A stretch of DNA of 64,000 nucleotides, from contig OZ024741.1 in the NCBI GenBank assembly GCA_964016885.1, positions 96,100,001 through 96,164,000 of the forward strand, read 5' to 3'. Of this stretch, positions 2,806 to 59,388 are shown piece by piece. Numbering within the stretch: position 1 is the first letter of the stretch; every line of letters begins with the position of its first letter. The notes under the pieces were generated by a model that saw nothing but the letters and a program-made list of their open reading frames with translations, made no database searches and was not told the DNA's origin. This DNA is from Eledone cirrhosa (Eukaryota). A program made the position numbers and the translations under genes.

Positions 2806-2826
2806 ATATATATATATATATATATA

Positions 2827-3137
2827 TAAGGAAAAAAGATGAAATCGAAAATGCAACTGGAGTCTTTTTTTTTAAATATATTTATTTGGTTCTTTTACAG
2901 GTTTCACAGTTCTTGTGCTTTTCAAAAGTAGTATTGAGATGGAGGGTTTGTGGTTTTTACCCTTCATCTCAATTCTACTTTTGAACAGCACAAGAACTGC
3001 GAAACCGGTAAAGGAACCAAATAGATGTATTTAAAAAAAAATAGACTCCAGTTTCATTTTCAATTTCATCTTTTTTCCCTATACATTCACTTGTGTAGGA
3101 CAGCTCGTTTTTTTTCATCTTGTAAAAAAACCCTCAC

Positions 3138-3143
<6 letters not shown>
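2827..3143 (+). mobile_element. Small fold-back PLE-like element with HHR-like motif
   Basis: Imperfect inverted repeat 2827-2947 / 2959-3083, then about 60 bp of unique tail; (TA)n on both sides; HHR-like motif at 2978-3013. Confidence 0.65.
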
Positions 3144-3169: not shown

Positions 3170-6100
3170 TTCATTTCTGAATTTGTTTAGCAAGATTTTT
3201 TATCTGAAATCGTGTGTTGAAACCGATATTGTTATACTTTGGGAGGGTCATGTTGCCAATAAGAAACACACGCACCAGTTGCTTTCACTTCAATTTATTA
3301 TAATAAATTTATAATAAATTTATAAATTTATAAATTTCTGGTTGGCTGGTTGGTTCCACAACCAGGTAGTTGTTTATATATTGTCATAGTTCTTTCGTCA
3401 CACACTCTGTGACCTCTTCAGTGACTGGGGATGCCTTTCTTTGTTTCTGTGCCTCTCCTTTGTTCTGTCCTACGCCATTTTGTTTGTGTGTGTGTTGTGT
3501 GCTCAGTCTGTGCATGCGCCACATCCGAGTGTCTGTGTGTGTTTATGTTCATTTATTTATTTGTTTATTTACATGTTACTGGTTGGTTGTTTGTTCTATG
3601 TGTATGTGTGTTTTCATTTTGTCCTTAATTGTAAGTTGTGATGTTGCTGTTCCACTCATATTTTCTATTTAATTTTGGTTGTAATTCTTTTATGTTTATT
3701 GCCCCTGTGATTTGTCTAAACATTGCGTCTTTTCTGTGTGTAGATTCTATTTTTATTTCTATGTTCTCTAATTTACCCTTGTGTTCTATTTTAGCATGTT
3801 GGTACAGTACAGATGATTCTTTACTATCTTGAAGGTCTCGTCAGTGTTCATTTATCCGTTCCCCTACACTACGAGCTGTCTCACCTATGTACACTATATT
3901 TTTGTCTCTACATTGTCCTTCAGTACATCTTATGCCATACACTACATTTCTAGTTTTACAGTTAATATGGGGGCTTATTTTACAGGTTATACATTTCTTA
4001 TCTATACATGAGGGTCTTTGAAAAGGGTATGTCTTGCTAATAAGTGTTTTTACGGAGGTACCTGGTCTTTCTACTATCTTAATATTGAGTTTATGTTTAT
4101 CTAGGGCCCTTCTAAATTTGTAAGCTAATTCACCTCTAGGGGTTGTATCGATGAACATTACACTCTGGTATTTATTGCTATCGTACCATGAGTTTATTCT
4201 ATTAGCCTTGTTCCTAGTTCTTTCTATTTTATTCCAAAATTTGCTCCTATACAAGGGGCAGGTCCCATTTATGTCATTATTTACCATTTTTTCCCATTTG
4301 GTTCTGGCTCCTCTATACACTCTGATTTTATCTCTCTGATTGTAGCCAGAGAACTGCATACGGTGGATGAAGTGTTGTATGTGTCTCTCTAGTTCTTCGG
4401 GGTTGCACATGCGGGACACGTTTCTCATCACCCGTACCAAATCCGCAATCAGTATGTTGATTTTGGTATGGTCCGAAACGGCCGAGTTTCGGTGGATCAG
4501 ATGTTTGGAAGTCATGGGTTTGGCATAATGGGAATGGAGGATTTGTTTTTTGTTATTAATGGTATCTAACCAGAGCTCTGTGTCTAGTGCAGGTAATCGA
4601 TGGTTGGGGTGTTTACTTGGGTAGTCTATAGTAACTCTAATGCTCTGGTAGATGGAGTTAGCTATTTGCTGGATGCTTTCCATTGTGTTTTTCTCTAGTT
4701 CCTGACTGTTCTCTAGTGGGGGTGTCTTAACTACGATGTTTATATCATCAACGTAGCGGGAGTACATTATCAGGGTTAAGGGGTCTTCTAATTGTTCTTT
4801 AAGATTAAGTTTAAGTCTACTGTCCCACCATACCATGAATAAGTTAGCTATGTCGCCTGCAATGCTAACACCAATGGCTGCTCCTTCCTCTTGGGCATAT
4901 GTTTTTCCATTAAATTTGAACATATGTTCCTTAAGGGTTAGTTTTATGCTGGCCCCTACCGCATGTGCAATCATTTTCTTCAGTTCATTGTGGTTTTCGG
5001 GTGTCCGTATGGCTCTGGTCCACCCGTTCCATCTATCTGTGTGGGTTTTCTTGGCCATTGAGGTAATGGTAGGTGGTCTGCCTCTTGCTGGTCTTTTAGG
5101 GCACAGGTTGCTAAGGTCATATGTGTCTAGGTAATTATTACTATAGGTAAGTTTAGGTAGGAGTCCCAGCTCACTGGTATCAATCCCACGGAACTCAACA
5201 TTGCTCTCACTGATCATTTCTACGCATTTCTCCACAGCAAAATCCACGTCAATAGATGGATACAGGGACACAACATCCATACTACCTATTATGCAGTTTG
5301 TTAGGTCCCTACATCAGTTACTCCCGCCGATACTGCTGAGGAGGTCCTCCGTGCTGTCACATACATCTGGGGACATTTCAATGATGGGGCGTATGATCAG
5401 GGAGAGGAAGTAGGACAGTCTGTAGTTACTAGCAATGTTAGCTCCACAGACTGGCCGTGTTGGTGGTCCCGCGACAGGGTCACTGCCCGTTTTATGGTCT
5501 TTTCGAAGCCCATACAACGCCGGCACGTCATTGTTCCAGGCCTGGAAGTTGTTGGCAGTCCTTTTGTTGGGCTGCATTATATTCGTCCACATCACCATAT
5601 GGGCATTGAGGGCTTTTTCTCTATCCTCATGCTCCTGTGGTGTTACCTCTCTTGTGTTAGTGATGTGGGGTTGCATTGCCTGGATGTAGTTTGGCAGGCT
5701 GTCAACCGACATTCTGCCAGACTTGTCTGTTGGAAAGCATGCTATCTCTCCATTACGTGAGCGCTGCATGAGCTTACGCAAGCCATTTGCAGATTTTTCT
5801 CCCAGTTGCTGGGCCTCCATTCTATTATGCTTCTTGCTATACTGTTCTATAATATTTCTAAGTTCGGATCTAGCTATACTAAATTGTGCTTCTGTTTGTT
5901 CATCGACCTGCGACGGCAATTGCGTGCGTTTGTTAAATGGTAAAGTCGTGGCCTGGACTCGTCGCAGGTCGAACGATTTATCGGAGGGATTATAAAAGTA
6001 GAGTTCCAGGCTGCTGCTTTATGTGTACTAGTGCTATTGTTATTGTTAGTTGTGTTGTTCCTATTTCTATTTCCACCAACAGCCTCATGGTTGTTTCTAT

Positions 6101-6321
6101 GTCTCTCATAATTACTCCTGTCTCTTTCCACTTGCTCATTGTTGTTATCTACCCTATTTTGTGTGTCTGTGTGTTCGTCTTGGTTATTTTCTTTGTCCTT
6201 AGTCTCCCTTCTCCTTTTAATCCTATTACTTTCCCTTATTTCTGTGATTTCTGTGCTATTGTCATTACTTGTTTTCTGTGTCTGTGTGTTTGTTAAGATT
6301 GTGGTGGTGGTGAGAGGCATT
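3168..6321 (-). mobile_element. PLE family B copy 1, long arm (disrupted RT-GIY-YIG)
   Basis: ORF pieces 5874-6320, 5314-5919 (PTDKSG, LYGLRKDHK, TRPVCGA) and 3841-5280 (MDVVSLYP, GAAIG, RYVDD, NVVY..YIGET). Frameshifts, plus a TGG>TGA stop at 3841. 3' end abuts (TA)n. Confidence 0.93.
3383..3425 (-). ncRNA. Minimal type I hammerhead ribozyme in family B 3' region
   Basis: Minus strand reads GUCA-CUGAAGA-G-GUCACA gagug UGUGAC-GAAA-G aa C-UA-UGAC. Confidence 0.75.
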
Positions 6322-6353
6322 TCTTATTCTTTTTTTTTATTCAAAAACCTCCC

Positions 6354-7217
6354 TGTATAGATAAGAAATAAGAAATATAAGAAATGTATAAGACATGTAT
6401 AATCTGTAAATTAAGCCCCCATATTAACTGTAAAACTAGAAATGTAGTATATAGCGTAAAATGTACTGAAGGACAATGTAGAGATAAAAATATAGTGTAC
6501 ATAGGTGAGACAGCTCGTAGTATAGGGGAACGGATAAATGAACACTGGCGAGACCTTCAAGATAGTAAAGAATAATCTGTACTCTACCAACATGCTAAAA
6601 TAGAACATAAGGGTAAATTAGAGAACATAGAAATAAAAATAGAATCTACACACAGAAAAGACGCAATGTTTAGACAAATCACAGAGGCAATAAACATAAA
6701 TGAACTCCAACCAAAATTAAATAGAAAACATGAATGGAACAGCAACATCACAACTTACAATTAAGGACAACATGAAAACACACACGCACATAGATCAAAC
6801 GACCAACCAGTAACATGTAAATAAACAAATAAATAAACGAATATAAACACACACAGACACCCGGATGTAACACATGCGCAAACTAAGCACACAACACACA
6901 CACACAAACAAGATGGCGTAGGACAGAACAAAGGAGAGTCACACAAACAAAGAAAAGAATCCCCAGTTACTGAAGAGGTCACAGAATGTGTGACGAAAGA
7001 ACTTTGACAATATATAAACAATCATCTGGTTGTGGAACCAACCAACCAACCAGAAATTTATAAATTCCTAAATTTATAAATTTATTATAATAAATTGAAG
7101 TGAAAGCAACTGGTGCGTGTGTTTCTTATTGGCAACATGACCCTCCCAAAGTATAACAATATCGTTTCAACACATGTTTTCAGATAAAGAATCTTGCTAA
7201 ACAAATTCAGAAACGAA
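6354..7217 (+). mobile_element. PLE family B copy 1, inverted short arm (GIY-YIG plus 3' UTR)
   Basis: Reverse complement of about 3168-4009; ORF 6384-6575 NVVYSVKC..YIGET; HHR at 6966-7008; ends in (TA)n. Confidence 0.92.
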
Positions 7218-7409
7218 ATATATATATATATATATATATTAGAAAGGAGGTTTTTTTACAAGATGAAAAAAACGAGGCGCCCTACACACACACACACACA
7301 CATACACACACACACACACACACCCATATATATATATATATATATATATATCTGTGTGTGTGTGTGGATATATAAATAGTTATATGTGTATATATAGAGA
7401 CAGATATAT

Positions 7410-9780: not shown

Positions 9781-10127
9781 AATTCTCTAATTGAGTGATC
9801 ATGAATCGTCTTGATCGTTATATATTATATATCGATCTCTTTTTATATTTATGCTCTTAACGCAGTCGAGCAGTTTTTTCTGAGTTAGTGTGTGAACTAT
9901 TTCTAGCGTTACCAATTAGTGACTATGATAAAACCCTGAAGGTGGTATGTCAGTTTGGTCCCAGTCCAATAATTAAAAGCAGTAAAATATTAAAACATTA
10001 AAAGAATGTCGCGGTTTTCCAGTTTGTGTCTATTTACTACTATATTATTTAATATGATCTTCACTTTTTAAGACATGGTTTCAACATGATTTTGCTACAA
10101 TTTTCGACAGTGGACGCACACTCATAT

Positions 10128-10310
10128 AATTGTTTCTACTTTTGGTTCAAGGCCAGCAATTATCCCAGTGCATTACTGGTACTTTATTTTGTCGACCCCG
10201 TAAGGATGAAAGGCAAAGTTAACCTCGGCGGGATTTGTATTCAGACCTTCAAGGGCCGTAACTATGCTGGAAAGCATGGCGTACGACGCTCTACGGATTC
10301 TGCCAATTCA
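10128..10310 (-). mobile_element. tRNA-derived SINE, main family
   Basis: Homologous to 14953-15143. Confidence 0.75.
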
Positions 10311-10729
10311 CTGATGCTTGTTGTTAACATTATTGCTACTGTTGTTATCGTTATTTATTTACATGTAATTTCTCATCGAATACAGCTATGATGAAAATTC
10401 TTTCCATTCAATCCTGTAGTTTCTCTCAGAAACTCGATGCATTTCAGACCACATTGATCAACATATCAATCCAGTTTTAAGGCAATAAGATGAGATAGGA
10501 GGCTGTTATTGTTAACAGACTGTCCAACTATATCGAAACTTTTAACGTGTATTTCAATGACATAATTTGCTGGTAGGTGGTCACATTTTATTTTTAATAT
10601 GATTATATCGATATCAATGGCAAAGAACAAAATATTTTGCAGTACTATGTTTTCTTCTTTTGTGTTCTAGACAAGTACAACATTGCCCTCCATCCTTCCG
10701 GGATGGATAATAACAATTACTAGTATATA

Positions 10730-10928: not shown

Positions 10929-12001
10929 TATTTAAATAAATGTTAGAAAATATATGGCCTTGTACATCTGCTAGAAATTATAATTTTCTGCTTACATTCA
11001 CAAAAATATACTATGCCATACAGTGTATGAAGATGAGATTACTTTTTCAGAATCAAATAAACTAAACATCCACAGAGCACCTAGAGATGTTTTTTCTGAC
11101 GAATTCTTTTTGAAAGGTAATTACCAAAGTTTACAGACGTGGCTTAGATTCTCATTGGGTTTCACTTTTTATTCGTTTTCATAAGCGCCTCGTGCCTCTA
11201 TGGAGCAGTAGCAACGGCAATAATAGTCGTGTCGGCAGCACTAGTAGCAGGATCAGTAGCAGCAGCAGCAGCAGCAGCAGTAGCAGCAGCAGTAGTAGTA
11301 GTAGTAGTAGTAGTAGTAGTCTTAGTAGTAGTAGTCTTAGACAGTAGTAGTTTTTGATTGATGAAAGGTTGATATTTTGTGATAATTTGAAAACGGAAAT
11401 CATATCGCATGTTATAATTGTAAACTATAATATGTAACCACGAGTAGTAAGAAATATAATAACTAAAACTCTACTTGCCTGTGACAGGAATATTTTTTTA
11501 TTTATTACTCCTGATCTACTTATAGGTTGATTCACGAAGGAATATCCTATTTTTACGAGACATTCTGTGGAATCGATTTTAGAGAAAACAATATATAATT
11601 GTATTGTACTTACTTTCTAAATGCATTGAGAGAACTTTGGAATTAATTTAGTCTAGAACAGATAAAAGGGAAAAAAGAACTGTTATATATCATCATATAA
11701 TGCTTTGGATTAGAGAATAAACGTCTGCTAGAATATTTTTTTGGTTATTTATTAAATAATGGCGAAATGGAGTTAAGTTGAATTATGAGATGTATGGTAG
11801 AAAAATATAAAAATACAACAATTTAAGCAATACAAATACGTTGGCATGTTATTTCCTATCATATGTTTTAAGGTTTTACGACCATATTTTAAACCTTTAT
11901 CTCGTGCGTCTAAAGCAAAAGCTCTAGAAAGGACACATCTTCATTTTGCAATTTAACTCTGAACACTTATTTTTTGCATCTGCTTCTGCTTAAAACAAAA
12001 T

Positions 12002-12183
12002 AATTCTTTCTACTTTTGGCACAAGGCCAGCAATTACCCCAGTGCATTACTAGTGCTTTATTTTATCGACCTCCATAAGGATGAAAGGTAAACTTAACCT
12101 CGGCGGGATTTGAACTCAGAACGTAAAGGGCCATAACTCTATGCTGCAAAACATGGTGTCTGACGCTCTACCGATACTGCAAT
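12002..12183 (-). mobile_element. tRNA-derived SINE, main family
   Basis: Homologous to 14953-15143. Confidence 0.75.
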
Positions 12184-12410
12184 TTTGTTAGGGATAGTTT
12201 ATGAGATTCCGTGACGTTCATACATTGCTCAGATGCATCACTTTATTTAATTGAAGTGTAATATGCACAATACGTAATCGATATGCTATAGAGAACTCGT
12301 CTCGTTAGTATTCGTCACTAACTCTAATTTGCTCGATTTTCTATACTAAATGTTAATGAAGGGGCAGAGAACTGGATAATTTCTTCTGTTTGTGTTCATA
12401 GCGAGAGCTG

Positions 12411-13580: not shown

Positions 13581-14952
13581 AGGAATTAGATTAAAACAGA
13601 ATTATTGCAAAATAACCGCGTTCGTTTGTATAAATGCTCGGAGTCCAGTAAACGTATAAGAAAACATAGAAACGGCAAAATACTTTACACTATTGATTTA
13701 GAAATAATAAATAGTATAGTAGAAAATCAGTACACTATTGCTTGTGGAAGCGTATGTAAAGATGTTTGCCATAGAATCTCAAGCATCATACATTTATCTG
13801 TTTCTGGTTTGTCGTATACAAGAAATTCACATGATCTGTGGCTTTCGCGATCTGCAGTCTATTTTATACTTTTATCTTACTATAGTTTTTGAAGCGAATG
13901 CGTGCTTCAATACGATGATTTGTTTTCTCAAAATTCCTTTAATTGTGTTTCAGATAGGAACTAATTGATTTAACTGATTAGTAAGTAACAATTTACTAAG
14001 TTTCGTGTGGATAAAATCAAAGTATATATTGCTTTAATTAACTAGCTGAAAAAAAAGAAAACATTAACTAAATCGAAGTGATGCAATAAAAATTTCGGAA
14101 CGTAGAATTTTATATGTGATTGATTTGTATGACTTGTAAACCTAGAACAAAAATATAATGTTAGAAGAATGTTGGCTGCTCATTGGGTGTTTTGTTGAAG
14201 CAATTCTTATAATTGAGTTTTTCTCTATCCGGCATATGGTGTTGTGTGACATAACGACTGCGTGTGGTAAACATTGACAAAAAAAAAAAAAAAAAAAAAA
14301 AAAGCCTTGTTCACGAGAATCTTGCGATAAATATTTCAATCACAGATGTTGCTCTAATCATTGTTTTCGGTTTTGGTATATATGATTTGTGAAATCTACG
14401 TGACGAATTCAAATCCTAATGGAGTAGAATTTTACTTGTTTACGTCACTTGATAAAGAAATGAAGTTCAGCCTGGCTTATTACCTAGCTTCTGAATATAA
14501 GATCATACATTTTCACAAGCACAACGGAGTTGTAGGCAGATGGGACTTTTCCCTTTCACTTAGCAAAGTTAATGCTGCTGCACAGAGATAACAACATTAC
14601 ATCGTTCGTCGTTCTAAACCCATGGAGCTCATAATTGTAGGTTAAAAACTAATAGTTGGTGGTGCCATGAAAATGTAAATATATGAATGTAAGAATATCA
14701 CTTAAATAAATAAATAAATATGAAGTCTTTAGTGGTACCAATATTACTCTTCAAATTAAGTAATTAATGCCTTGAAGTACAATCCATCTGTCTTATATAA
14801 AACAAGTTTGTAGTTTGTTTTGCGAGAATGTATTGCAGTCCTAGGACCTGATCAATCCTATTTTATGGCAGGTCAGCCTATTCATATTTATGGTAGTATG
14901 GTAGCCATTGCATACGAACTCTATCCTTTTCACCTGGAGTTATATAGTCTTA

Positions 14953-15143
14953 AGGGCGGTGGATTGGCAGTATCGGTAGAGGGTCGGACGCCATACTTTC
15001 CAGCATAGTTACGTCCCTTTACGATCTGAGTTCAAATCCCGCCGAATGTTGACTTTGCCTTTCATCCTTACGGGGTCGATAAAATAAAGTACCAGTAATG
15101 TACTGGGTAATTGCTGGCCTTGTGCCTAAAGTAGAAACAGTTA
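14953..15143 (+). mobile_element. tRNA-derived SINE, main family (reference copy)
   Basis: A-box-like TGGCAGTATCGG and B-box GAGTTCAAATCC, then a conserved GCCTTTCATCCTTACGGGGTCGATAAAAT core resembling the Nin domain; at least 10 copies in the window. Confidence 0.8.
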
Positions 15144-17367
15144 TATAGTCTTAACAGAATGCAGTACTGCAATACAAACTGTAGATTATTCGGTCAGTAG
15201 TAGGATTTCTTATAAGCTTATAGTAGTCGGATAATTTGCAGGAGCCTAATACGTAATTCCACTTATTGTATTTTTATAATTTGATCAAGAGGTTAAACAT
15301 TCATGATGTTTCTCGGATTTGGAAAAGTATCTACAGGAATATATTAACGAGGAGGGCAGCAGGTGTTTGGTACAAAAGCATACAAGAGAATGAAATTTGT
15401 TAAATGTACAGGAGCTCTACAATGTAAAACTAAGACCTATCAATTTTTTATATATGTAATCTATATTGAGTTCTAGGTTATACGATTGGAGAAGGGAGGA
15501 GTTAGTCGCTTCAGCAAATGACCTGTGAAATTGATCTCGACGGGACTTGAACTTAGATAGTATATTTTAACTTTATTTTACTATTATTATGGAGTGAGGC
15601 AGTGCGCTTTATTCGTTTAAATGGTGGAAAGGGGGACTATATCGTCAAGCCGAAGACCTGGATGTTAAAGTGTGCAACAGAGTTGGCTCCCTTAATGGCA
15701 CCCAAGAAAAAAGTGGTGTTGCATCGGGTGAGGGATTAAGTCCAACACCCCAGTAATCCATATCGGGATATGAACTCAGAACTCAAGAGGCCGGAACCCG
15801 CAATAAATATATCTCTTCTGACATTTGAATATTTCTGATAATATATTAATCTGGTATGGTACATTATTTTATCGACCATGAAAGAGTTGCCCCCAGCGTA
15901 GTTTGAACGTAAGGCGTAGAGAGCTGAAACAAATGACGTAAGAAATGTTTGTTCCACGCTGTAAAGAGTCTTCCAATTCACCAACTATATATTAACAGAC
16001 AAGAAGATTTTTATAAGCATAGGAAGTCTTTGAAGGAATAAAAGGTAAAGAAATCCCTAATGGAATTTAAGGTGAAAAATGTGAGACGACCAAACAAACA
16101 CGTATTCGATGCTGTATTTTGCTTCTATATTTGATATTTTTGTCATATATAAAAATAAACTAGAATTTTGACTTTCGAAATTCTTATGAAAAATATAAAA
16201 AAGACATTTTTAAATATAATTTTTCTAAAATGCCCCATAAGAATTATAGGCTAAACATTTTCCAAACACGTTTTTTATTATTCTAAATTGTAGCAGATCA
16301 ATCATTATTTCAAGTGAAAACTCCCTGCCGAAATCCAGGGTCATTTTAGTTATTAGACCTAATTCTGGAAGCACTGCAAAGTATAAAAATATACCATCGA
16401 TTTTTTCCAAGCAGATGCTGAAAAAAAAAATTACTTTAAATTATTTCAGAGTTGTTCTGAGATCCTGAAGCATTCATATTTCAGTATCGTCTAGAGATAG
16501 CGAAGAACTAATTGGATTTCAGGTTTTGAAGAATTCTCCAGAAATGGCTGAGATGCCTGCTTTTCATCAAGAATTGTTTTTTCAACTCATATTGTAAGGT
16601 CCCACTCCATTTAAAGACAATTCAATTATTGTAAAGAAGTGACTGGTGAAAATCAATCATAAACGAAAAGCAACCCGTTTATTTTGTCAGTGATAGAAGA
16701 CAGCACATTTTATTTCAAACTTGGCTTTGCTTTCTTACCGCCATCACCGCTATAGCAATCAGCATCATCATTGCCGAAGGCATCGCTTGCTGCACTACAA
16801 CTAATATCACTACCCTCTCCAGCATCATCACCACTACTATCATTACCACTACCATTTCCAATATCATCATCTCAACATCACCTCCTTAGGCAGTAACAAA
16901 TTTTTTCTAGGCGTAATTCGATTGAAGAGTTGAGCAATGAATAAATTCTACATATATGTATATATTTATTATTTTTAATCGCGATGAAGAGGTGCAGCAT
17001 GTTAGATGTAAACTCAGTGTGAGTAATGTCCTCGTGTCCTGCGTTCAATTTCCGTTGCCAGTTATTTCCAGTTGACTATCTCTCTTGTAAACAGCTGAAA
17101 TGTCATATATTAGAAATCAAGAAATATTATAAATAAAAAAAATTCAGTCGGAATTCAATTCTGGGCTGTAGAATCTATGAAACATTGGTATCACTTCAAT
17201 TATTGATTTGATCTTCTGCTCATTTAGCTGACGTCCATATCATTATCGATGATATATAATGAATTGTTTCACATGTTTATACAGGACTACCATTATATTG
17301 AGGAAGGCTATAATTAATAAAGTTATCCTTGATCAGATTTGGATTAAAACTAAATGGTACCCTAAAC

Positions 17368-20234: not shown

Positions 20235-20236
<2 letters not shown>

Positions 20237-20421
20237 GAAAAGAGTCAGAACTCCGACGGCTGAACTTCGGCCGTTTCGACAGCTAGATCTAACTGTCGAA
20301 ACTGCCGGAGCTCAGCCGTCGGCGTCCTGACTCTTTTCTTATTACCCACTCTACTACCCTAAGTATCGAGTACTCTGGTGCGTTATGGTCCACCTGGTTC
20401 CTTACCACACTTTCTTTGTTA
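20235..20421 (+). mobile_element. Small fold-back element family C, copy 1
   Basis: Hairpin 20236-20339 plus a unique tail; (TA)n on both sides; homologous to 29620-29813 and 52272-52432. Confidence 0.75.
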
Positions 20422-26589: not shown

Positions 26590-26860
26590 GAGTTACGGCC
26601 CTTTATGGTCTGAGTTCAAATCCCGCCGAGGTTAACTTTGCTTTTCATCCTTACGGGGTCGATAAAATAAAGTACCAGTAATGTACTGGTGTATTGCTGG
26701 TCTTGTGCCAAAAGTAGAAACAATAATTATTTCTAACATTTGCACAAAGCCATTAATTTGATGGAGGGGAAGTATCGATTATATTGGCACCCGTACTTCA
26801 CTGGTACTTTATTTTATTGACCCCGGAAGGATGAAAGGCAAAGTTCATCTCGGTTAGATT
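26590..26860. mobile_element. Two SINE fragments, tail to tail
   Basis: Main-family core on + (26590-26728) and a variant on - (26730-26860). Confidence 0.65.
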
Positions 26861-29595: not shown

Positions 29596-29619
29596 TTATA
29601 TATGTATATAACTATACTT

Positions 29620-29813
29620 CTAACAAAGAGGGTGTGGTAAGATACCAGGTGGACCATAACTCACCAGAGTACTCAATACTTAGAGTAGTTGAGTGGGTAA
29701 TAGGAAAAGAGTCAGGACCCCGACGGCTGAGTTCCGGCCGTTTTGACAGTTAGTTCTGATCTAGCTGTCGAAACGGCCAGAGCTTAGCCGTCGGGGTCCT
29801 GACTCTTTTCCTA
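29620..29813 (-). mobile_element. Small fold-back element family C, copy 2
   Basis: Hairpin 29700-29813 plus tail 29620-29699; homologous to 20235-20421. Confidence 0.75.
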
Positions 29814-29824
29814 TATATACTTTT

Positions 29825-32086: not shown

Positions 32087-32139
32087 AGTAGTAGTAGTAG
32101 TATGTCGTTGTTCTTGTTCTTGTTATTACCAGTATTATT

Positions 32140-32645
32140 AAGGTGGAGGATTGGCAGTATCGGTAGAGAGTCGGACGCCATGCTTTCCAGCACAGTTACG
32201 TCCCTTTACGGTCTGAGTTCAAATCCCGCCGAGGTTAACTTTGCCTTTCATCCGTACGGGGTCGATAAAATAAAAGTTCCAGTAATGTACTGGGCAATTG
32301 CTGGCCTTGTGCCAAAAGTAGAAACCGTTATTACCAGTATTATCTATTGTATTCTTAGTTTGGGAAATACATCAAGTTTGTTTACTACTACTACTACTAC
32401 TACAACTACTACTACTACCAGACAGATAGATTAACAGTGTCAGTAGAATATCGGTCAACAGGCTTTGTGGCATATAGTTACGTCCCTTTACGTTCTGAGT
32501 TCAAATCCTGCCGAAGGTAGCTTTGCCTTTCTTCCTTATAGGGTCGATAAAATAAAATACGAGTAAGACACTGGGGTCGATTTAATCGACATTCCCCTCC
32601 CCACAAAATGTTGGCCTTGTGCCTAAATCAGAAACCCTTATTATT
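32140..32645 (+). mobile_element. Two tRNA-derived SINE copies (32140-32332 and 32435-32645)
   Basis: Homologous to 14953-15143. Confidence 0.75.
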
Positions 32646-35062: not shown

Positions 35063-35407
35063 TAGATATTTCATTGGGATTTGGTAGTTAAGGAAGTTCA
35101 ACAGATAGAAAATGAAAGTTTCAATTAGTAATAGTTTTGTTCAAAAATAGCGCAAAATGTGAGAAAATTGGTGTAGGTGATAGTTGAAGATTATTTCAAA
35201 CAGATAATGAGATACTCACCTATGAAGTGTCTCTAGTTTAGGTAGCAAAGAAGAGAATAAGTTACTACAGGTTTTCAACAACAAACATCTTAGCTAAATG
35301 ATTAATGTAAAGATTAATGCGAAAAGCAACAAAATCAAAAATATAAAACAAGAGAGCAGCTGAATGATATATGTATCTTCGATAAGGCAGTATGTCACTG
35401 GTACATA

Positions 35408-35590
35408 TAATTGTTTCTACTTTTGGCAAAAGGCCAGCAATTACCCCAGTGCATAACTGGTACTCTATTTTATCGACCCCGTAAGGATGAAAGGCAAAGT
35501 TAATTTCAGCGGGATTTGAGCAGAGAACGCAAAGGGTCATAACTCTATGCTGTAAAACATGGTGTCTGACACTCTACTGATATTGCCAAT
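35408..35590 (-). mobile_element. tRNA-derived SINE, main family
   Basis: Homologous to 14953-15143. Confidence 0.75.
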
Positions 35591-35681
35591 TTTTGAAACA
35601 TAAAACCGAGAGAAGAGTGCTGAAAGAAACATAATTAGCCATAAATGACGTTTTATATGTCAGATGATGATGATAATGAGA

Positions 35682-37275: not shown

Positions 37276-37932
<657 letters not shown>

Positions 37933-37949
37933 ATATATATATATATATA

Positions 37950-39999
37950 TGTTTCTTAAAATAACAGATTAAAGTTTAAGCAAGCAAAGAATCGCTGCTT
38001 TCACCCTTAACGGGATCATCTGAAACTAAAAAGATCAATCTGTGAACGCAGAAGTAAATATTTCGAAAAACGTTGCAACTGAAGGAAGACAGGTAGACGA
38101 TACTTTGGTTCGTAGAAACGTTCCCTGGCAAAGAACGGAAAAAAACGAAGATCATTATTTGGAGCGGTGAAAACAATTACACGCAAAGACAAAACCACGT
38201 TTATGGTATAAATGAAGTCGTAGACTAATATTCTATTAGGTGGTTCGTGGAGACTTTCTCTGGCAATGAACGGAAAAAACGAAGATTATACGCCATTAAG
38301 TGGTGCGGGAGAACAATTACACGCAAAGACAAAACCACGTAATATGTATAACTGAAGTCGTAGACTAAAATTCTATTCAGGAAACCGAATGATTCTCGGC
38401 TTCAGAGTTAAGAATAATGTAAATAAATACAGAGGTAATTGAAAACAACAAAAATTAAATATATACATGCACGCATCCATATATTTACATACACATGCAT
38501 ACGCGAAAACACCCGCCATGGGTATGCAAATACAAGCACCTACACAAAAAAACACGCACGCACATACAGAACCCACTCAACGCCTGTACCCGCACACATA
38601 CGAACGTATACACCAAATACACATAAAAATATATATTAAAAAAACATATATATATATGTGTGTGTGTGTGCATGTATACATATAATTATATAAACGTATA
38701 TAAATAAACACACATAAATACGTATATAACGCGCGCACACACAAACCTACATGTAAATACACATATGTTCGCTAAAAGAACGTCAACCAAAACATAAGGT
38801 ACACATATACACACACCCTATATACGTACGAACCCGCATACTCACACAGACGCAAAACTCACGTATACACATAACCATATGCACATGTACGAAAATATAT
38901 AATATAATATATACGCCTATAACATATACAAGCAAATATACGTACAAGAAAGAATACGTACCTTCCCAAAACATACAGGTAATATATACTTACCTATACA
39001 AATAAGTAATGGTATAAACATAACATAAACTTAGTTAACACATCGAGACGTAAAATATCCGAGTATATTTCGTACTTCCGTTAGGGTATAATGTAGGGCT
39101 GTAATACAGGAAAGTGTTGTGCAATTTATGTTTACAAGCGAAATTGCCTCAGATTTTTTGTTAAAGATGTGGTCTTTGGCGTAGAGTATTTCCAGGGCTT
39201 CAACGGCGCAGAGGTCACATGGTCTTTTATTTCCATTACACGATCTAGCCCTAGCTAGAATCTCCCAGTGTAACTTATATTGGGTCTGGTTGACTTTTAG
39301 ACTCCAGATATAAGTCATATTCCTTCTTAAAGGGTTAAGAAAAGAATGGGTATGCATGTAAAGACGCTGCTTGAATCTATTGGCAGTTAACAGTATGTAG
39401 GCCCTACGGGACGTGGGTGTTTCAACCTTACATTTGTAGACAATGTTACTAGAGAGGCATTTCCCGGATAGGGGACAGTCAACCCGATTCCTACAATTAC
39501 AGTTAGTACTAGCTACAGGGTTGCACGTGTTCCTACGGCAAGGTAATTTAGCTAAATTTGAAGCTGTGATGTTATGCGCAAGGTTAGGAGTCGTAGAGTA
39601 AGAAATTTTAATGGTATTTCTATTAAAAGTTTTACTATATTTATGTGCTGGGGGAAAATGCTTCATAATAAGGGAGAGAAAGATGTTAGCTAATGGTGTG
39701 GCCGCCTCCATATTATATGGTGGGTTATGCCATAAAATGCGTCGGGATCTATTTTTCCTAGGTCTATTCTCAAACTCTGTATATGCTACTTTATCGACAA
39801 ACCCACTCCGAGCAAGAGCTTGTTTGTAATATATGGAATGGTCGGTGAAAATATGCTCGTTTGTAGATAGATGAGAAAGCCTCAAAGAAACGTTTCTTAC
39901 CAGGTTCTTGGTTATGCTGGCAGGATGGTTAGAATGCTTACTTATGTAATTAAGCGTATCATTCGGCTTTCTATACGGGTAGTGCAAGCCATAGTGCAA
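37950..39999 (-). mobile_element. 5'-truncated PLE family E (RT C-terminus, GIY-YIG, 3' UTR)
   Basis: ORF 39031-39999: YRKPNDTLNYISKHSNHP, CNCRNRVDCPLSGKC, NIVYKC, RFKQRLYMH, CDLCAVE. UTR has a tandem duplication (about 38060-38380) and an HHR-like motif at 37990-38026. The UTR extent is inferred. Confidence 0.8.
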
Positions 40000-40083
40000 A
40001 TATTTGCTCTACGGTTCTTATATATTTGATATATATTTATCCTTATCGAGGAATTTATTATTATTAAAATTTATTATTATTAC

Positions 40084-40258
40084 TATCGGTAGAGGGTCGG
40101 ACGCCATGCTTTGACGCATAGAGTTACGGCCCTTGCCATTCTGAGTTTAAATCCCGCCGAGGTTAACTTTGCCTTTCATCCTTACGGGGTCGATAAAATA
40201 AAGTACCTGTAATACACTGGGCAATTGCTGGCCTTGTGCCAAAAGTAGAAACAATTAT
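40084..40258 (+). mobile_element. tRNA-derived SINE, main family
   Basis: Homologous to 14953-15143. Confidence 0.8.
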
Positions 40259-40538
40259 TACTATATATATATATAAGCATGTATACGTACATATATATAT
40301 GTATACAGACGTACAGTAGTATGTATATATATATATATATATTCTATTCTAAGGCGGGTAAAATTCCCGAGATCCATGGACGAGTTCTCTCCAGCGGTCT
40401 CTGTCCCTCATTATCGCTGCCATGTCCTGCGTCTCCAACATACGTTAACCTTGGTCTTCCTCTTCTAGGAGACTGATGTTAGCTGGACATGCTCACCGAC
40501 ATCCAGAGTTGACATTGCACTCAGTGCCTACATGGACA

Positions 40539-41112: not shown

Positions 41113-42582
<1,470 letters not shown>

Positions 42583-44962: not shown

Positions 44963-45626
44963 AGGGCGGAGAAGAAATGGATCAAAATCAAAGTCTAACA
45001 TTAAAACATGGGACAAACGAAAGACACCGAAAACATGGAGACGGGACTTATGGAAATTTTCCGTTGGTCAACTTTTTACTGGGTGGGGTGTTATTTTGGG
45101 TGTCAAAAAGAGAGAGAGAAACAGAGAGAGTGAGAGAGAGATATAGAGAGGGAGAGAGGGAGAAAGGAAGCGAAAGAAAGTGAGACCAAAAGATAGAGAG
45201 GCGGAGAGAAAAAGAAAAAAGTGTTTGAGAGTGAGAGAGAAAGACAGAAAGAGATAAATAGTTATAGGTAGTTAGATCACTATACAGATATAATGATTGA
45301 AATATACATAGACATTTCACTTTAAATATATAAAAATAAATATATATTTCTTGATTGTACTGTATTGTCTGCTTTCTTATTTCCGTACAGCATATATATA
45401 TATATATATATATATATATTTCGTTTCTGAATTTGTTTAGCAAGATTCTTTATCTGAAATCGTGTGTTGAAACCGATATTGTTATACTTTGGGAGGGTCA
45501 TGTTGCCAATAAGAAACACACGCACTAGTTGCTTTCACTTCAATTTAATTTATTATATATTTATAAATTTACAAATTTATAAATTTCTGGTTGGTTGGTT
45601 GGTTCCACAACCAGATAGTTGTTTAT

Positions 45627-45671
45627 AGTCATAGTTCTTTCGTCACACACTCTGTGACCTCTTCAGTGACT
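45627..45671 (-). ncRNA. Minimal type I hammerhead ribozyme
   Basis: AGUCA-CUGAAGA-G-GUCACA gagug UGUGAC-GAAA-G aa C-UA-UGACU. Confidence 0.8.
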
Positions 45672-45976
45672 GGGGATTTCTTTCTTCGTTTCTGTGCCTT
45701 TCTTTTCTTCTATCCTACGCCATTTTGTTTGTGTGTGGGTTGCGTGCTCAGTTTGCGCATGCGCCACATCCGGGTGTCTGTGTGTGTTTGTGTTCATTTT
45801 TCTATTTTTCTATTTATATTTTTCTATTTGTTTGTTTATTTATTTATTTATTGTTGGTTGGTTGTTTGTTCTATGTGTGTGTGTGTTTTCATTTTGTCTT
45901 GTGTGTGTTTTCATTTTGTGTGTGTTTTCAATTGTAAGTTGTTTGTTCTATGTGTGTGTGTGTTTTCATTTTGTCC

Positions 45977-48691
45977 TTAATTGTAAGTTGTGATGTTGCT
46001 GTTCCACTCATATTTTCTATTTAATTTTGGTTTTAATTCTTTTATGCTTACTGCCTCTGTAATTTGCCTAAACATTGCGTCTTTCTTGTGTGTGGATTCT
46101 ATTTTTATTTCTATGCTCTCTAATTTACCCCTGTGTTCTATCTTAGCATGTTGGTAGAGCACAGATGATTCTTTATTATCTTGGAGGTCTCGCCAGTGTT
46201 CATTTATTCGTTCCCCTATACTACGAGCTGTCTCACCTATGTACACTTTATTTTTGTTTCTACATTGTCCTTCAGTACATCTTATGCTATATACTACATT
46301 TCTAGTTTTACAGTTAATATGGGGGCTTATTTTACAGGTTATACATTTCTTATCTATACATGAGGGTCTTTGGAACGGGTATGTCTTGCTAATAAGTGTT
46401 TTTACGGAGGTACCAGGTCTTTCTACTATCTTAATATTGAGATTATGTTTCTTTAGGGCCCTTCTAAATTTGTAGGCTAGTTCGCCTCTAGGGGTTGTAT
46501 TGATGAACATTACACTCTGGTATTTATTGCTATCATACCATGGGTTTATTCTATTGGCCTTGTTCTTAGTTCTTTCTATTCTATTCCAAAATTTGCTCCT
46601 ATACAAGGGGCAGGTCCCATTTATGTCATTATTTACCATTTTTTCCCATTTGGTTCTGGCTCCTTTATACACTCTGATTCTATCTCTCTGATTGTAGCCA
46701 GAGAACTGCATACGGTGGATGAAGTGTTGTATGTGTCTCTCTAGTTCTTCGGGGTTGCACATGCGGGACACATTTCTCATCACCCGTACCAAATCCGCAA
46801 TCAGTATGTTAATTTTGGTATGGTCCGAAATGGCCGAGTTTCGGTGGATCAGATGTTTGGAAGTCATGGGTTTGGCATAATGGGAATGGAGGATTTGTTT
46901 TTGGTTGTTAATTGTATCTAACCAGAGCTCTGTGTCTAGTACAGGTAATCGATGGTTGGGGTGTCTACTTGGGTAGTCTATAGTAACTCTAATGCTCTGG
47001 TGGATGGAGTTTGCTATTTGCTGGATGCTTTCCATTGTGTTTTTCTCTAGTTCCTGACTGTTCTTTAGTGGGGGTGTCTTAACTACGATGTTTATATCAT
47101 CTACGTAGCGGGAGTACATTATCAGGGTTAAGCTGTCTTCTAATTGTTCATTAAGTTTTTGTTTAAGTCTACTGTCCCACCATACCATGAATAAGTTAGC
47201 TATGTCGCCTGCAATGCTAACACCAATGGCTGCTCCTTCCTCTTGCGCATATGTTTTACCATTAAATTTGAACATATGTTCCTTAAGGGTTAATTTTATG
47301 CTGGCCCCTACCGCATGTGCAATCATTTTCTTCAGTTCATCGTGGTTTTCGGGTGTCCGTATGGCTCTGGTCCACCCGTTCCATCTATCTGTGTGGGTTT
47401 TCTTGGCCATTGAGGTAATGGTAGGTGGTCTGCCTCTTGCTGGTCTTGTAGGGCACAGGTTGCTAAGGTCATAAGTGTCTAGGTAACTATTACTATGGGT
47501 AAGCTTAAGTAGAAGTCCCAGCTCACTGGTATCAATCCCACGGAACTCAACCTTGCTCTCGCTGATCATTTCGACGCATTTCTCCACAGCAAAATCCACG
47601 TCAATAGATGGATACAGGGACACAACATCCATACTGCCTATTATGCAGTTTGTTAGGTCCCCAGATCGGTTACCCGCGCCGATTCTGCTGAGGAGGTCCT
47701 CCGTGCTGTCACACACATCTGGGGACATCTCAATGATGGGGCGTATGATCAGGGAGAGGAAGTAGGACAGTCTGTAGTTACTAGCAATGTTAGCCCCACA
47801 GACTGGCCGTGTTGGTGGTCCCGCGACAGGGTCCCAGCCCGTTTTATGGTCTTTTCGAAGCCCATACAACGCCGGCACGTCATTGTTCCAGGCCTGGAAG
47901 TTGTTGGCAGTCCTTTTGTTGGGCTGCATTATATTTGTCCACATCACCATATGGGCATTGAGGGTTTTTTCTCTATCCTCATGCTCCTGTGGTGTTACCT
48001 CTCTTGTGTTAGTGATGTGGGGTTGCATTGCCTGGATGTAGTTTGGCAGGCTGTCAACCGACATTCTGCCAGACTTGTCTGTTGGAAAGCATGCTATCTC
48101 TCCATTACGCGAGCGCTACATGAGCTTACGCAAGCCATTTGCAGATTCTTCTCCCAGTTGCTGGGCCTCTATTCTATTATGCTTCTTGCTATACTGTTCT
48201 ATAATATTTCTAAGTTCGGATTTAGCTATACTAAATTGTGCTTCTGTTTGTTCATCGACCTGCGACGGCAACTGCGTGCGTTTGTTAAATGGCAAAGTCG
48301 TGGCGTGAACTCGTCGTAGGTCCAATGATTTATCGGAGGGGTTATAGAACGGAGAGTTCCAGGCTGCTGCTTTATGTGTACTAGTGCTATTGTTATTGTT
48401 GGTTGTGTTGTTTCTATTTCCACCAACAGCAGCAGCCTCAGCTTCATGGTTGTTTCTATGTCTCTCATAATTACTCCTGTCTCTTTCCACTGGCTCAATG
48501 TTGTTATCTACCCTATTTTGTGTGTCTGTGTGTTCGTCTTGGTTATTCTCTTTGTCCTTAGTCTCCCATCTCCTTTTCCTTTTAATCCTATTACTATTAC
48601 TTTCTCTTATTTCTCTGATTTCTGTGCTACTGTCATTACTTGTTTTCTGTGTTTGTGTGTTTGTTAAGATTGTGGTGGTGGTGAGAGGCAT
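45977..48691 (-). pseudogene. PLE RT-GIY-YIG protein (about 904 codons) with a single in-frame TAG at 48116-48118
   Basis: ORFs 48116-48691 and 45977-48064 are in frame; copy 1 has CAG at the stop position. Motifs MDVVSLYP, RYVDD, C-x4-C-x2-C-x7-C linker, VVY..YIGET..R..EH..EA. Confidence 0.92.
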
Positions 48692-48933
48692 TGAATGCGT
48701 GTGTGTTGTTGTTGTTGATGTGTGTTGTTGTTGATGTGTGTTGTTGTTGATGTGTGTTGTTGTTGTCTCCGTGTGTGTGTGTGTTATCGTTGTTGTGTGT
48801 GTTGTTATTGTTGTTTGTGTTTGCGTGTCTGTTGTTGTTGTATCTGGGTATGTTGCTATTGTTGTTGTTGTTGATGTGTGTGTTGTTGTTATTGTTGTCT
48901 CCGTGTGTGTTGTTATTGTTGTCTCCGTGTGTG

Positions 48934-51066
48934 TCTATTGACGTGGATTTTGCTGTGGAGAAATGCGTCGAAATGATCAGCGAGAGCAAGGTTGAGTTCC
49001 GTGGGATTGATACCAGTGAGCTGGGACTTCTACTTAAGCTTACCCATAGTAATAGTTACCTAGACACTTATGATCTTAGCAACCTGTGCCCTACAAGACC
49101 AGCAAGAGGCAGACCACCTACCATTACCTCAATGGCCAAGAAAACCCACACAGATAGATGGAACGGGTGGACCAGAGCCATACGGACACCCGAAAACCAC
49201 GATGAACTGAAGAAAATGATTGCACATGCGGTAGGGGCCAGCATAAAATTAACCCTTAAGGAACATATGTTCAAATTTAATGGTAAAACATATGCCCAAG
49301 AGGAAGGAGCAGCCATTGGTGTTAGCATTGCAGGCGACATAGCTAACTTATTCATGGTATGGTGGGACAGTAGACTTAAACAAAATCATAATGAACAATT
49401 AGAAGACAGCTTAACCCTGATAATGTACTCCTGCTACGTAGATGATATAAACATCGTAGTTAAGACACCCCCACTAAAGAACAGTCAGGAACTAGAGAAA
49501 AACACAATGGAAAGCATCCAGCAAATAGCAAACTCCATCCACCAGAGCATTAGAGTTACTATAGACTACCCAAGTAGACACCCCAACCATCGATTACCTG
49601 TACTAGACACAGAGCTCTGGTTAGATACAATTAACAACCAAAAACAAATCCTCCATTCCCATTATGCCAAACCCATGACTTCCAAACATCTGATCCACCG
49701 AAACTCGGCCATTTCGGACCATACCAAAATTAACATACTGATTGCGGATTTGGTACGGGTGATGAGAAATGTGTCCCGCATGTGCAACCCCGAAGAACTA
49801 GAGAGACACATACAACACTTCATCCACCGTATGCAGTTCTCTGGCTACAATCAGAGAGATAGAATCAGAGTGTATAAAGGAGCCAGAACCAAATGGGAAA
49901 AAATGGTAAATAATGACATAAATGGGACCTGCCCCTTGTATAGGAGCAAATTTTGGAATAGAATAGAAAGAACTAAGAACAAGGCCAATAGAATAAACTC
50001 ATGGTATGATAGCAATAAATACCAGAGTGTAATGTTCATCAATACAACCCCTAGAGGCGAACTAGCCTACAAATTTAGAAGGGCCCTAAAGAAACATAAT
50101 CTCAATATTAAGATAGTAGAAAGACCTGGTACCTCCGTAAAAACACTTATTAGCAAGACATACCCGTTCCAAAGACCCTCATGTATAGATAAGAAATGTA
50201 TAACCTGTAAAATAAGCCCCCATATTAACTGTAAAACTAGAAATGTAGTATATAGCATAAGATGTACTGAAGGACAATGTAGAAACAAAAATAAAGTGTA
50301 CATAGGTGAGACAGCTCGTAGTATAGGGGAACGAATAAATGAACACTGGCGAGACCTCCAAGATAATAAAGAATCATCTGTGCTCTACCAACATGCTAAG
50401 ATAGAACACAGGGGTAAATTAGAGAGCATAGAAATAAAAATAGAATCCACACACAAGAAAGACGCAATGTTTAGGCAAATTACAGAGGCAGTAAGCATAA
50501 AAGAATTAAAACCAAAATTAAATAGAAAATATGAGTGGAACAGCAACATCACAACTTACAATTAAGGACAAAATGAAAACACACACACACATAGAACAAA
50601 CAACTTACAATTGAAAACACACACAAAATGAAAACACACACAAGACAAAATGAAAACACACACACACATAGAACAAACAACCAACCAACAATAAATAAAT
50701 AAATAAACAAACAAATAGAAAAATATAAATAGAAAAATAGAAAAATGAACACAAACACACACAGACACCCGGATGTGGCGCATGCGCAAACTGAGCACGC
50801 AACCCACACACAAACAAAATGGCGTAGGATAGAAGAAAAGAAAGGCACAGAAACGAAGAAAGAAATCCCCAGTCACTGAAGAGGTCACAGAGTGTGTGAC
50901 GAAAGAACTATGACTATATATATATAAACAACTATCTGGTTGTGGAACCAACCAACCAACCAGAAATTTATAAATTTGTAAATTTATAAATATATAATAA
51001 ATTAAATTGAAGTGAAAGCAACTGGTGCGTGTGTTTCTTATTGGCAACATGACCCTCCCAAAGTAT

Positions 51067-51072
<6 letters not shown>
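48934..51072 (+). mobile_element. PLE family B copy 2, inverted arm (5'-truncated RT-GIY-YIG)
   Basis: Near-identical reverse complement of about 45478-47608; coding to 50565; lacks the last ~60 bp of the family end. Confidence 0.95.
50871..50915 (+). ncRNA. Minimal type I hammerhead ribozyme
   Basis: Same motif as 45627-45671; predicted cleavage after CUA at 50910. Confidence 0.8.
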
Positions 51073-51610
<538 letters not shown>

Positions 51611-55878: not shown

Positions 55879-56098
55879 ATCCATTACGAATTTATTCACT
55901 TATGTGTGTTATATAATATATATAAACTTATGGATACATTTTTATATGAACATATAGATTATTAACGTCTTTTTCTTATTTCGTTAGTTTGTTTTAGCCA
56001 TCACGTCTGAGAACGTAATGGAACACTATCGTGTCTAGCCCTCTGTCAACCATCTACGTTTCATCACATTCTAGGTTAGATATAATTCTAAGAATAAG

Positions 56099-56286
56099 AT
56101 AATTGTTTCTACTTTTTGGCACAAGGCCAGCAATTACCCAGTGCATTACTGGGACTTTATTTTATCGACCCCGTAAGGATGAAAGGCAAAGTCAACCTCA
56201 GCGGGATTTGAACCCAGATCGTTAAGGGACGTAACTATGCTGGAAAGCATGGCATCCAACCCTCTACCGATACTGCCAATCCACCG
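56099..56286 (-). mobile_element. tRNA-derived SINE, main family
   Basis: Homologous to 14953-15143. Confidence 0.8.
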
Positions 56287-58486: not shown

Positions 58487-58677
58487 AATAACTGTTTCTA
58501 CTTTTTGGCACAAGGCCAGCAATTATTCCAGTGCATTACTGGTACTTTATTTTATCGACCCCGTAAGGATGAAAGGCAAAGTTAACCTCGGCGGGATTTG
58601 AACTCAGATCATAAAGGGAGGTAACTCTATGCTTCAAAGCATGGCGTCCGACCCTTACCGATACTGCCAATCCACCG
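58487..58677 (-). mobile_element. tRNA-derived SINE, main family
   Basis: Homologous to 14953-15143. Confidence 0.8.
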
Positions 58678-59232
58678 AACGTTTGTTAATTACAAACACC
58701 CAAATCGTTACTTTAGTACTCTGATTTTCTTTCAGTTCAGCGTAAAAATGTTGCTTCATTACATATAGACATTCACTGGCTGCATTTGTCTCCAGCTTAA
58801 AGGTTTAGCGTATATTTATACGAGAGAACATTTGAGATTTTTATCTCTCTTCATTACAAATGTATTCATACCTTCACACACAATAGCTGTGAAGAAAGAT
58901 CGACACTGTATTTTTTAAGCATATATGTTTGCCACGAAACTTAAGGTTGTTGAAAAGGTTTTTAACCTATATCTATAGATACGTTATATATTCAGTCATT
59001 AGATCTCGGCCAAGCTGGAGCACTACCTTCAGGGAATCTAATCTTTTATTTCGACCCCAGTGCATATTGTTTCACGTCTTATACGTATTTTATCCATTCT
59101 AGGTTTATTGATTGATGAATATGTATATTATATATGTATGTATACATAAATATATCATTTTCTTTGAAATTTACACTCAGTTATTTCTCGTCTTTGGTTA
59201 GCTATTATTTTACTTAATGTCATGTTTTATAA

Positions 59233-59388
59233 ATAATTGTTTCTACTTTTGGCACGAGGCCAGCAATTACCCAGTGCATTACTGGTACTTTATTTTATCG
59301 ACCCCGTAAGGATGAAAGGTAAAGTTAACCTAGGCGGGATTTGAACTCAGGCCATAAAGGACCGTAACTCTATGCTGCAAAGCATGGG
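59233..59388 (-). mobile_element. tRNA-derived SINE, main family
   Basis: Homologous to 14953-15143. Confidence 0.8.

Follow-up and report, generated by a model that had tools for sequence, protein, structure and literature searches.

A recent head-to-head PLE insertion with 2.1-kb inverted arms in a TA tract of Eledone cirrhosa

Inverted copies in described Penelope-like elements

The integration of Penelope-like elements (PLEs) is still poorly understood, and how their inverted pLTRs form is an open question. Targeting of (TA)n is listed among the usual PLE traits in PMC8557442, which also notes that the 5' end is often directly adjoined by an inverted 5'-truncated copy and that one end bears a tail of 30-40 bp. 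In rotifers, PLEs with long tandem and inverted structures were found with small RNAs switching polarity (PMC3846280), and long Penelope inverted repeats were linked to siRNAs, which matched inverted Penelope regions in transformed D. melanogaster (PMC3681739, PMC3136932). An anole PLE protein was reported to cut and extend both target strands and to initiate at two neighbouring RNA sites, which set the limits of the tail (PMC11167929). A minimal hammerhead was described for metazoan PLEs (PMC4209133), and since 336 recently active Penelope-like insertions are catalogued for O. vulgaris in PMC13282606, young PLE copies are not unusual in octopuses.

The locus described here lies in a window of 64,000 nucleotides, the whole stretch of Eledone cirrhosa DNA that was analysed (contig OZ024741.1, positions 96,100,001 to 96,164,000), which is microsatellite-rich with 36% GC. 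It is a real, recent insertion of an already known architecture, and an ordinary dead copy.

Anatomy of the insertion

The insertion totals 5,655 bp (45420-51074) and consists of two PLE copies placed head-to-head. A second head-to-head pair of the same family, referred to as copy 1, stands elsewhere in the window. The parts of the insertion and its target site are as follows.

45386..45419, plus strand: left half of the target site, TACAGC(AT)14
45420..48933, minus strand: left arm, a 5'-truncated PLE copy of 3,514 bp, 3' end facing left, 95% identical to the copy 1 left arm
45420..45475, minus strand: one-sided 3' tail of 56 nt (up to 60 given a shared ATAT), on the left arm only
47609..48933, minus strand: unpaired spacer of 1,325 bp, the N-terminal part of the left ORF
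48693..48933, minus strand: A/C-rich low-complexity tract, in frame and T/N/H-rich, either an element linker or a captured host repeat
48917..48933, plus strand: imperfect junction homology, 13/17 nt, to element sequence 47610-47627 just upstream of the right-arm start
48934..51074, plus strand: right arm, a 5'-truncated PLE copy without tail, its ORF remnant open for 542 codons (48937-50562)
51071..51131, plus strand: right half of the target site, (AT)25GTATGTATTTG
51266..51298, plus strand: intact sister unit, TACAGC(AT)8GTATGTATTTG, which shows the look of an empty site

In the arm-versus-arm alignment, the right arm (48934-51074, plus strand) is the reverse complement of 47608-45476 (minus strand), with 2,126 identities over 2,133 aligned bp, while the spacer between the arms has no mirror copy. 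The 7 substitutions that distinguish the arms lie at right-arm positions 49074, 49296, 49386, 49388, 49432, 49999 and 51024, and the sole indel is an 8-nt TA insertion in the right arm (50915-50922). A sequence-only reading had proposed 2.1-kb arms of very high identity that are not a perfect mirror, and both points are borne out, the protein differences KL/NH, SRY/SCY and NPW/NSW all being present. Its view of the minus arm as near full-length does not hold: the left ORF lacks an N-terminal block of ~200-260 residues, YGG..LPPKF..LRW, found in homologues of 1,024-1,175 aa, and there is no 5' pLTR. That reading also overlooked the one-sided tail, the rejoining flanks, the junction homology and the head-to-head layout of copy 1.

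When joined, the flanks give a TACAGC(AT)nGTATGTATTTG unit, which is present intact 190 bp away. The left motif, TACAGC(AT) with at least 3 repeats, occurs three times in the window (21406, 45386 and 51266), and all three window matches to (AT)nGTATGTATTT[GC] fall in the right-hand flank. Because the flanks rejoin into a unit seen intact, the 5,655 bp sit within a single TA tract whose flanks have lost nothing. A target-site duplication is not readable, the boundaries falling inside the (AT)n run.

Coding content and family

The left arm carries, in order, the RT, the thumb, a C-x4-C-x2-C linker and a CCHH GIY-YIG endonuclease, and the following features were located on the two arms.

45627..45671, minus strand: minimal type I hammerhead motif, stem I AGUCA/UGACU, core CUGAAGA..GAAA
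45977..48115, minus strand: 712 open codons with DKS motif, RT (YVDD), thumb, C-x4-C-x2-C linker and CCHH GIY-YIG endonuclease
48116..48118, minus strand: in-frame stop of the left arm, a sense codon in copy 1
50567..50680, plus strand: 3' UTR duplication, a 37-nt unit present twice, common to both arms (mirror at ~45862-45975)
50871..50915, plus strand: right-arm copy of the minimal hammerhead motif, with the 8-nt TA expansion coming next

The left ORF runs for 985 codons including one stop and begins inside the low-complexity T/N/H-rich linker. The right arm is without the first catalytic Asp of the RT, and GSMD163 sits at the spacer edge. Since both arms are incomplete and the left one has a stop, the locus would be unable to make an active enzyme, neither arm encoding the whole protein. 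Both arms are 5'-truncated, and the missing 5' pLTR (direct, partial tandem) lowers the standing of the copy as full-length but not its membership of the family, because truncation is usual in PLEs.

A homologue search of 7,125 candidates gave 192 matching proteins, and among the best 120 of these 192 the top match was a predicted protein of Octopus vulgaris (70%), most of the other relatives being unnamed (33-54%). In the homologue alignment, YVDD and YIGET..R..EH are conserved across 25 sequences, the CCHH residues C613, C618, H656 and H661 are invariant or nearly so, and the linker C586-x4-C591-x2-C594 is invariant. RVT_1 Pfam matches were obtained on both arms (E 1e-4 to 2e-4) and a GIY-YIG match on the left arm (E 2e-4), all below the Pfam cut-offs. 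The earlier placing of RT, GIY-YIG and hammerhead in both arms is borne out to the extent of these weak matches and of the hammerhead cores, the Pfam match to GIY-YIG being confined to the left arm.

By the motif definitions given in PMC8557442, the element is a predicted C-terminal GIY-YIG EN+ PLE of the Neptune/Nematis type. Two other assignments were considered and rejected: Naiad/Chlamys membership needs an N-terminal endonuclease, whereas here it is C-terminal, and the Hydra clade, as defined in PMC8557442, needs a CxCX5C linker and no CCHH, whereas here a C-x4-C-x2-C linker is combined with CCHH.

Both arms carry a predicted minimal hammerhead that matches the description in PMC4209133; sequence and fold give the left-arm motif a 6-bp stem II and a 2-bp stem III. 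An Rfam search returned 0 matches at the gathering score and the folding z-score was not significant (-0.35 to -1.32); the assignment rests on the core motif. In the 3' UTR, the 37-nt unit at 50567-50603 recurs at 50644-50680, which makes ~77 nt extra relative to both arms of copy 1 and confirms, within the window, the earlier observation of a duplication private to the two arms.

Comparison with published PLEs

With the Neptune/Nematis elements of PMC8557442, the locus shares an RT followed by a CCHH GIY-YIG, an upstream CX2-5CxxC linker, a minimal hammerhead at the 3' end, a (TA)n target, 5' truncation, an inverted copy and a one-sided tail; different here are DKS instead of DKG, a tail of 56-60 instead of 30-40 nt, and the absence of a direct 5' pLTR. 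Penelope of Adineta vaga, as described in PMC3846280, also has head-to-head copies, long tandem and inverted repeats, microhomology at 5' junctions and low-complexity in-frame inserts, but the inverted pLTRs illustrated there measure ~0.2 kb with junction palindromes, compared to 2.1-kb arms and a 1.3-kb spacer here. Drosophila Penelope likewise has long element inverted repeats able to give dsRNA (PMC3681739, PMC3136932), but it belongs to the Penelope/Poseidon clade, without a CxxC linker, while the element here has the linker. Poseidon PAc of Anolis exhibited in vitro the AT-rich cutting, the extension of both strands and the two RT starts bounding the tail that would be needed here (PMC11167929); it is of another clade, however, it initiates within the pLTR, at the start of the ORF, and the account in PMC11167929 does not extend to formation of a head-to-head product.

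The length of the arms had been put forward as a novelty, far beyond a short inverted pLTR. This claim finds no support, since the inverted part is a 5'-truncated copy according to PMC8557442, and its length is therefore set by where copying stopped; long Penelope inverted repeats with matching siRNAs are also on record (PMC3681739). No published inverted-arm lengths against which 2.1 kb could be ranked were found in the portions of the open-access literature covered by the search, including PMC6431247 and 10.64898/2026.07.22.740005, which contributed nothing on inverted arms.

Copy 1 and the related 3' ends

Two further loci of the same family bear on the origin of the arms.

3170..7217, both strands: copy 1, head-to-head, with a 3.15-kb minus arm and a ~0.88-kb plus arm, 6.1% apart
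41113..41418, plus strand: solo 3' end in a TA tract, closest to the copy 1 right arm

The arms of copy 1 differ at 50 of 820 sites, and over the 3' end 8/305 sites separate the plus arm from the solo end as against 18/310 from its own partner, while 8 sites place it together with the solo end. The copy 1 arms thus look like different subfamilies, which suggests two different templates at one site; because the plus arm is nearer to the solo end, the family would be able to pair unlike templates. Counter to this, the solo end might be a derivative of the copy 1 plus arm. The window therefore holds arms of one subfamily at 45420-51074 and arms apparently of two at 3170-7217. A count of mismatched-arm head-to-head PLE insertions was looked for, and no such test was found in the open-access literature searched.

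Outside its TA runs, copy 1 has an inverted repeat of ~52 nt (3092-3143 and 7240-7288), which could reflect a palindromic target, a 3' extension or run-through copying. Its junction shows slipped duplications at 6322-6395. Its left arm breaks off (6321-6322) at the equivalent of 48692, within ~7 nt of where the low-complexity tract of the insertion's left arm starts, at an ATG (48692-48699), and this point may reflect stalling of the RT or capture of a host repeat.

Divergence, selection and age

Among the five segments of the family within the window, the two arms of the insertion are mutual closest relatives, at 0.33% compared to 5-9%. In the common 3' region they differ at 1 of 870 sites, standing 6.6-9.3% from the copy 1 arms and 7.6-8.8% from the solo end. 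The coding changes between the arms, 4 non-synonymous and 2 synonymous, are compatible with neutral change, and one of them alters an arginine invariant in 25 of 25 homologues. Relative to copy 1, by contrast, synonymous changes make up 31 of the 68 codon differences, although only 20% of sites are synonymous (p=2e-6), and on the branch common to both arms 7 of 15 changes are synonymous (p=0.018). Because of this enrichment, the states common to both arms are taken to come from an active source and not from homogenised decay.

Of the 7 substitutions, 5 are found in the arm's first 500 bp (KS p=0.05, or p=0.15 if two adjacent changes are counted as one event), and such clustering could mean a mosaic or partial conversion. 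Polarising the changes at 49386/49388 by copy 1 was discarded as unreliable, since homologues favour the left arm's KL. If the arms began identical, if all changes are decay and if the borrowed octopus rate fits (dS 0.0036 per Myr, as used in PMC13282606), the arms are 0.46 Myr old, with a range of 0.18-0.94.

Origin of the two arms

The tail of the left arm is present in all three other 3' ends in the window, namely both arms of copy 1 and the solo end, while the end position of the right arm is used by 0 of these 3, so that an RT start there is putative. Of 3,233 positions scored by alignment, the junction homology, 2 nt from the junction, comes first at k=20 and k=25 and equal with a second site at k=15; it ranks third by DNA duplex energy (-10.6 vs -12.7 and -11.8 kcal/mol). 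The join was likely guided by this homology, which fits two annealed cDNAs and one folded cDNA equally.

From the observed anatomy, we infer a series of steps in which both arms derive from one insertion, the two ends of one break each priming reverse transcription, and we lean towards this reading with modest confidence. The TA tract would be cleaved on both strands by the GIY-YIG endonuclease. Priming from the left end at the outer start site would keep the tail and yield a copy of 3.5 kb; priming from the right end, ~56-60 nt further inside, would give a tailless copy of at least 2.1 kb, templated by RNA from the same young subfamily. Annealing of the two cDNAs at their ends through the imperfect 17-nt homology, and repair, would follow. 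The arms would at first be identical or nearly so, with the 7 substitutions and the TA slip arising as later decay or source polymorphism; one source copied twice and two RNAs of one young subfamily cannot be told apart. Two-end priming is favoured because of the one-sided tail, the rejoining flanks, the junction homology and the unlike arms of copy 1. Against it stand the tail of 56-60 nt, longer than the published 30-40 nt (PMC8557442), the absence of any other 3' end in the window at the right-arm end position, the equal fit of the junction homology to fold-back and its third rank by duplex energy, and the clustering of the substitutions. The earlier proposal of a single recent event agrees with the one (AT)n site, the closest relationship of the arms in the window and their neutral-looking differences.

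A broader statement, that head-to-head PLE insertions use two independent RNA templates, one per break end and with either start site, is offered only tentatively, at less than even confidence. The 52-nt inverted flank of copy 1 speaks against two-template priming, unless its target was a palindrome.

The strongest rival, though an unlikely one, is fold-back, in which the 3' end of the left cDNA would anneal to its own sequence at 47610-47627 and be extended on itself. The result would be a loop of 1,325 nt and a mirror copy of 2,133 nt, the latter joined to the right target end by way of ATAT. The geometry of the junction homology is just the one required, the two arms, both with the UTR duplication, are 99.7% identical, self-priming was proposed for head-to-head PLE junctions in PMC3846280, and run-through copying would yield the inverted flank of copy 1. 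However, the right arm lacks the outermost 56-60 nt of the left one, which is what a second RT start site would produce, the arms of copy 1 group with different copies, and the published self-priming cases described there have a palindrome at the junction instead of a 1.3-kb loop.

Gene conversion between the arms, acting afterwards on two separate insertions or on one older insertion that already had two arms, is improbable; the sequence-only reading had left this alternative standing. The clustering of substitutions near the junction, with only 2 in the distal 1.6 kb, would suit it, but the shared changes are synonymous-enriched and do not resemble neutral decay, in the unduplicated spacer there is a single stop and the frame is never shifted, and recent age alone suffices to explain the identity, so that conversion is not needed.

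Inverted duplication of a single copy after insertion by a replication template switch, with no second reverse transcription, could draw on the imperfect junction homology and the long TA tracts at both ends, but is very improbable given that the duplication covers element sequence only, that both flanks are intact and that copy 1 and published PLEs show the layout too. Equally hard to credit is a palindrome made by assembly or library preparation from chimeric or fold-back reads, for although such structures are hard to assemble (PMC8557442) and the junction is known from the assembly, the arms differ by 7 substitutions, the spacer is unmirrored, and rejoining, unmirrored flanks argue against a misjoin or mirrored chimera.

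Other repeats in the window and related loci

A second PLE family occupies 1-2200 on the plus strand, with a long RT frame, GPKF and DKG motifs, a GIY-YIG (Pfam E 9e-5) and one frame change. A 3' fragment of a third family (39031-40008, minus strand) has a CxCX5C linker and a later CxxC, as the Hydra clade is described in PMC8557442, and gave no significant match to the left-arm PLE protein. Pfam on 8 other ORFs of the window returned one GIY-YIG match at 1604-2158 and two weak spurious matches on a repeat-rich frame; no host gene was found among them. Adjoining the solo PLE end (41573-42557) are a small inverted duplication (41573-41680 / 42290-42397, 99%) and a direct duplication (41739-42005 / 42285-42557, 94.5%). 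Short palindromic MITE-like elements, 85-93% self-complementary, lie at 2822-3086, 20236-20419, 29597-29814 and 37451-37736, and a 190-bp SINE-like repeat is present in ~10 copies that are 83-92% alike, located as follows.

10123-10314, 11980-12186, 14950-15164, 26590-26729, 32138-32338: SINE-like repeat copies
35404-35593, 40084-40260, 56093-56286, 58487-58678, 59229-59387: SINE-like repeat copies

An exact 24-nt scan of metagenome contigs gave 0 matches. Related loci in metagenomes numbered 58, at 22-45% identity and all on contigs of 1.1-10.6 kb; 5 of the 58 have an inverted self-match of at least 40 nt and 0 have long high-identity arms, in assemblies of a kind that break at inverted repeats. 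One related PLE (L002:1-6055, 44%) lies in a tandem unit of 5.1 kb, and its terminal repeat contains a 105-bp minisatellite. A search of sequencing runs gave 24 from 16 studies, 20 of them with part of the stretch and 4 with half of it or more; no RNA run is among those listed, which has no bearing on expression.

Significance

The locus is a clean record of PLE integration, with an intact target site, a one-sided tail, junction homology and young arms. Together with copy 1, it suggests a cheap genome-wide test of two-template priming against fold-back. Formation of dsRNA from the locus is possible, only if it is transcribed. In that case, read-through RNA would fold into a 2.1-kb hairpin, and such a long hairpin would be open to silencing or to A-to-I editing, for which Drosophila Penelope already offers a precedent in kind.
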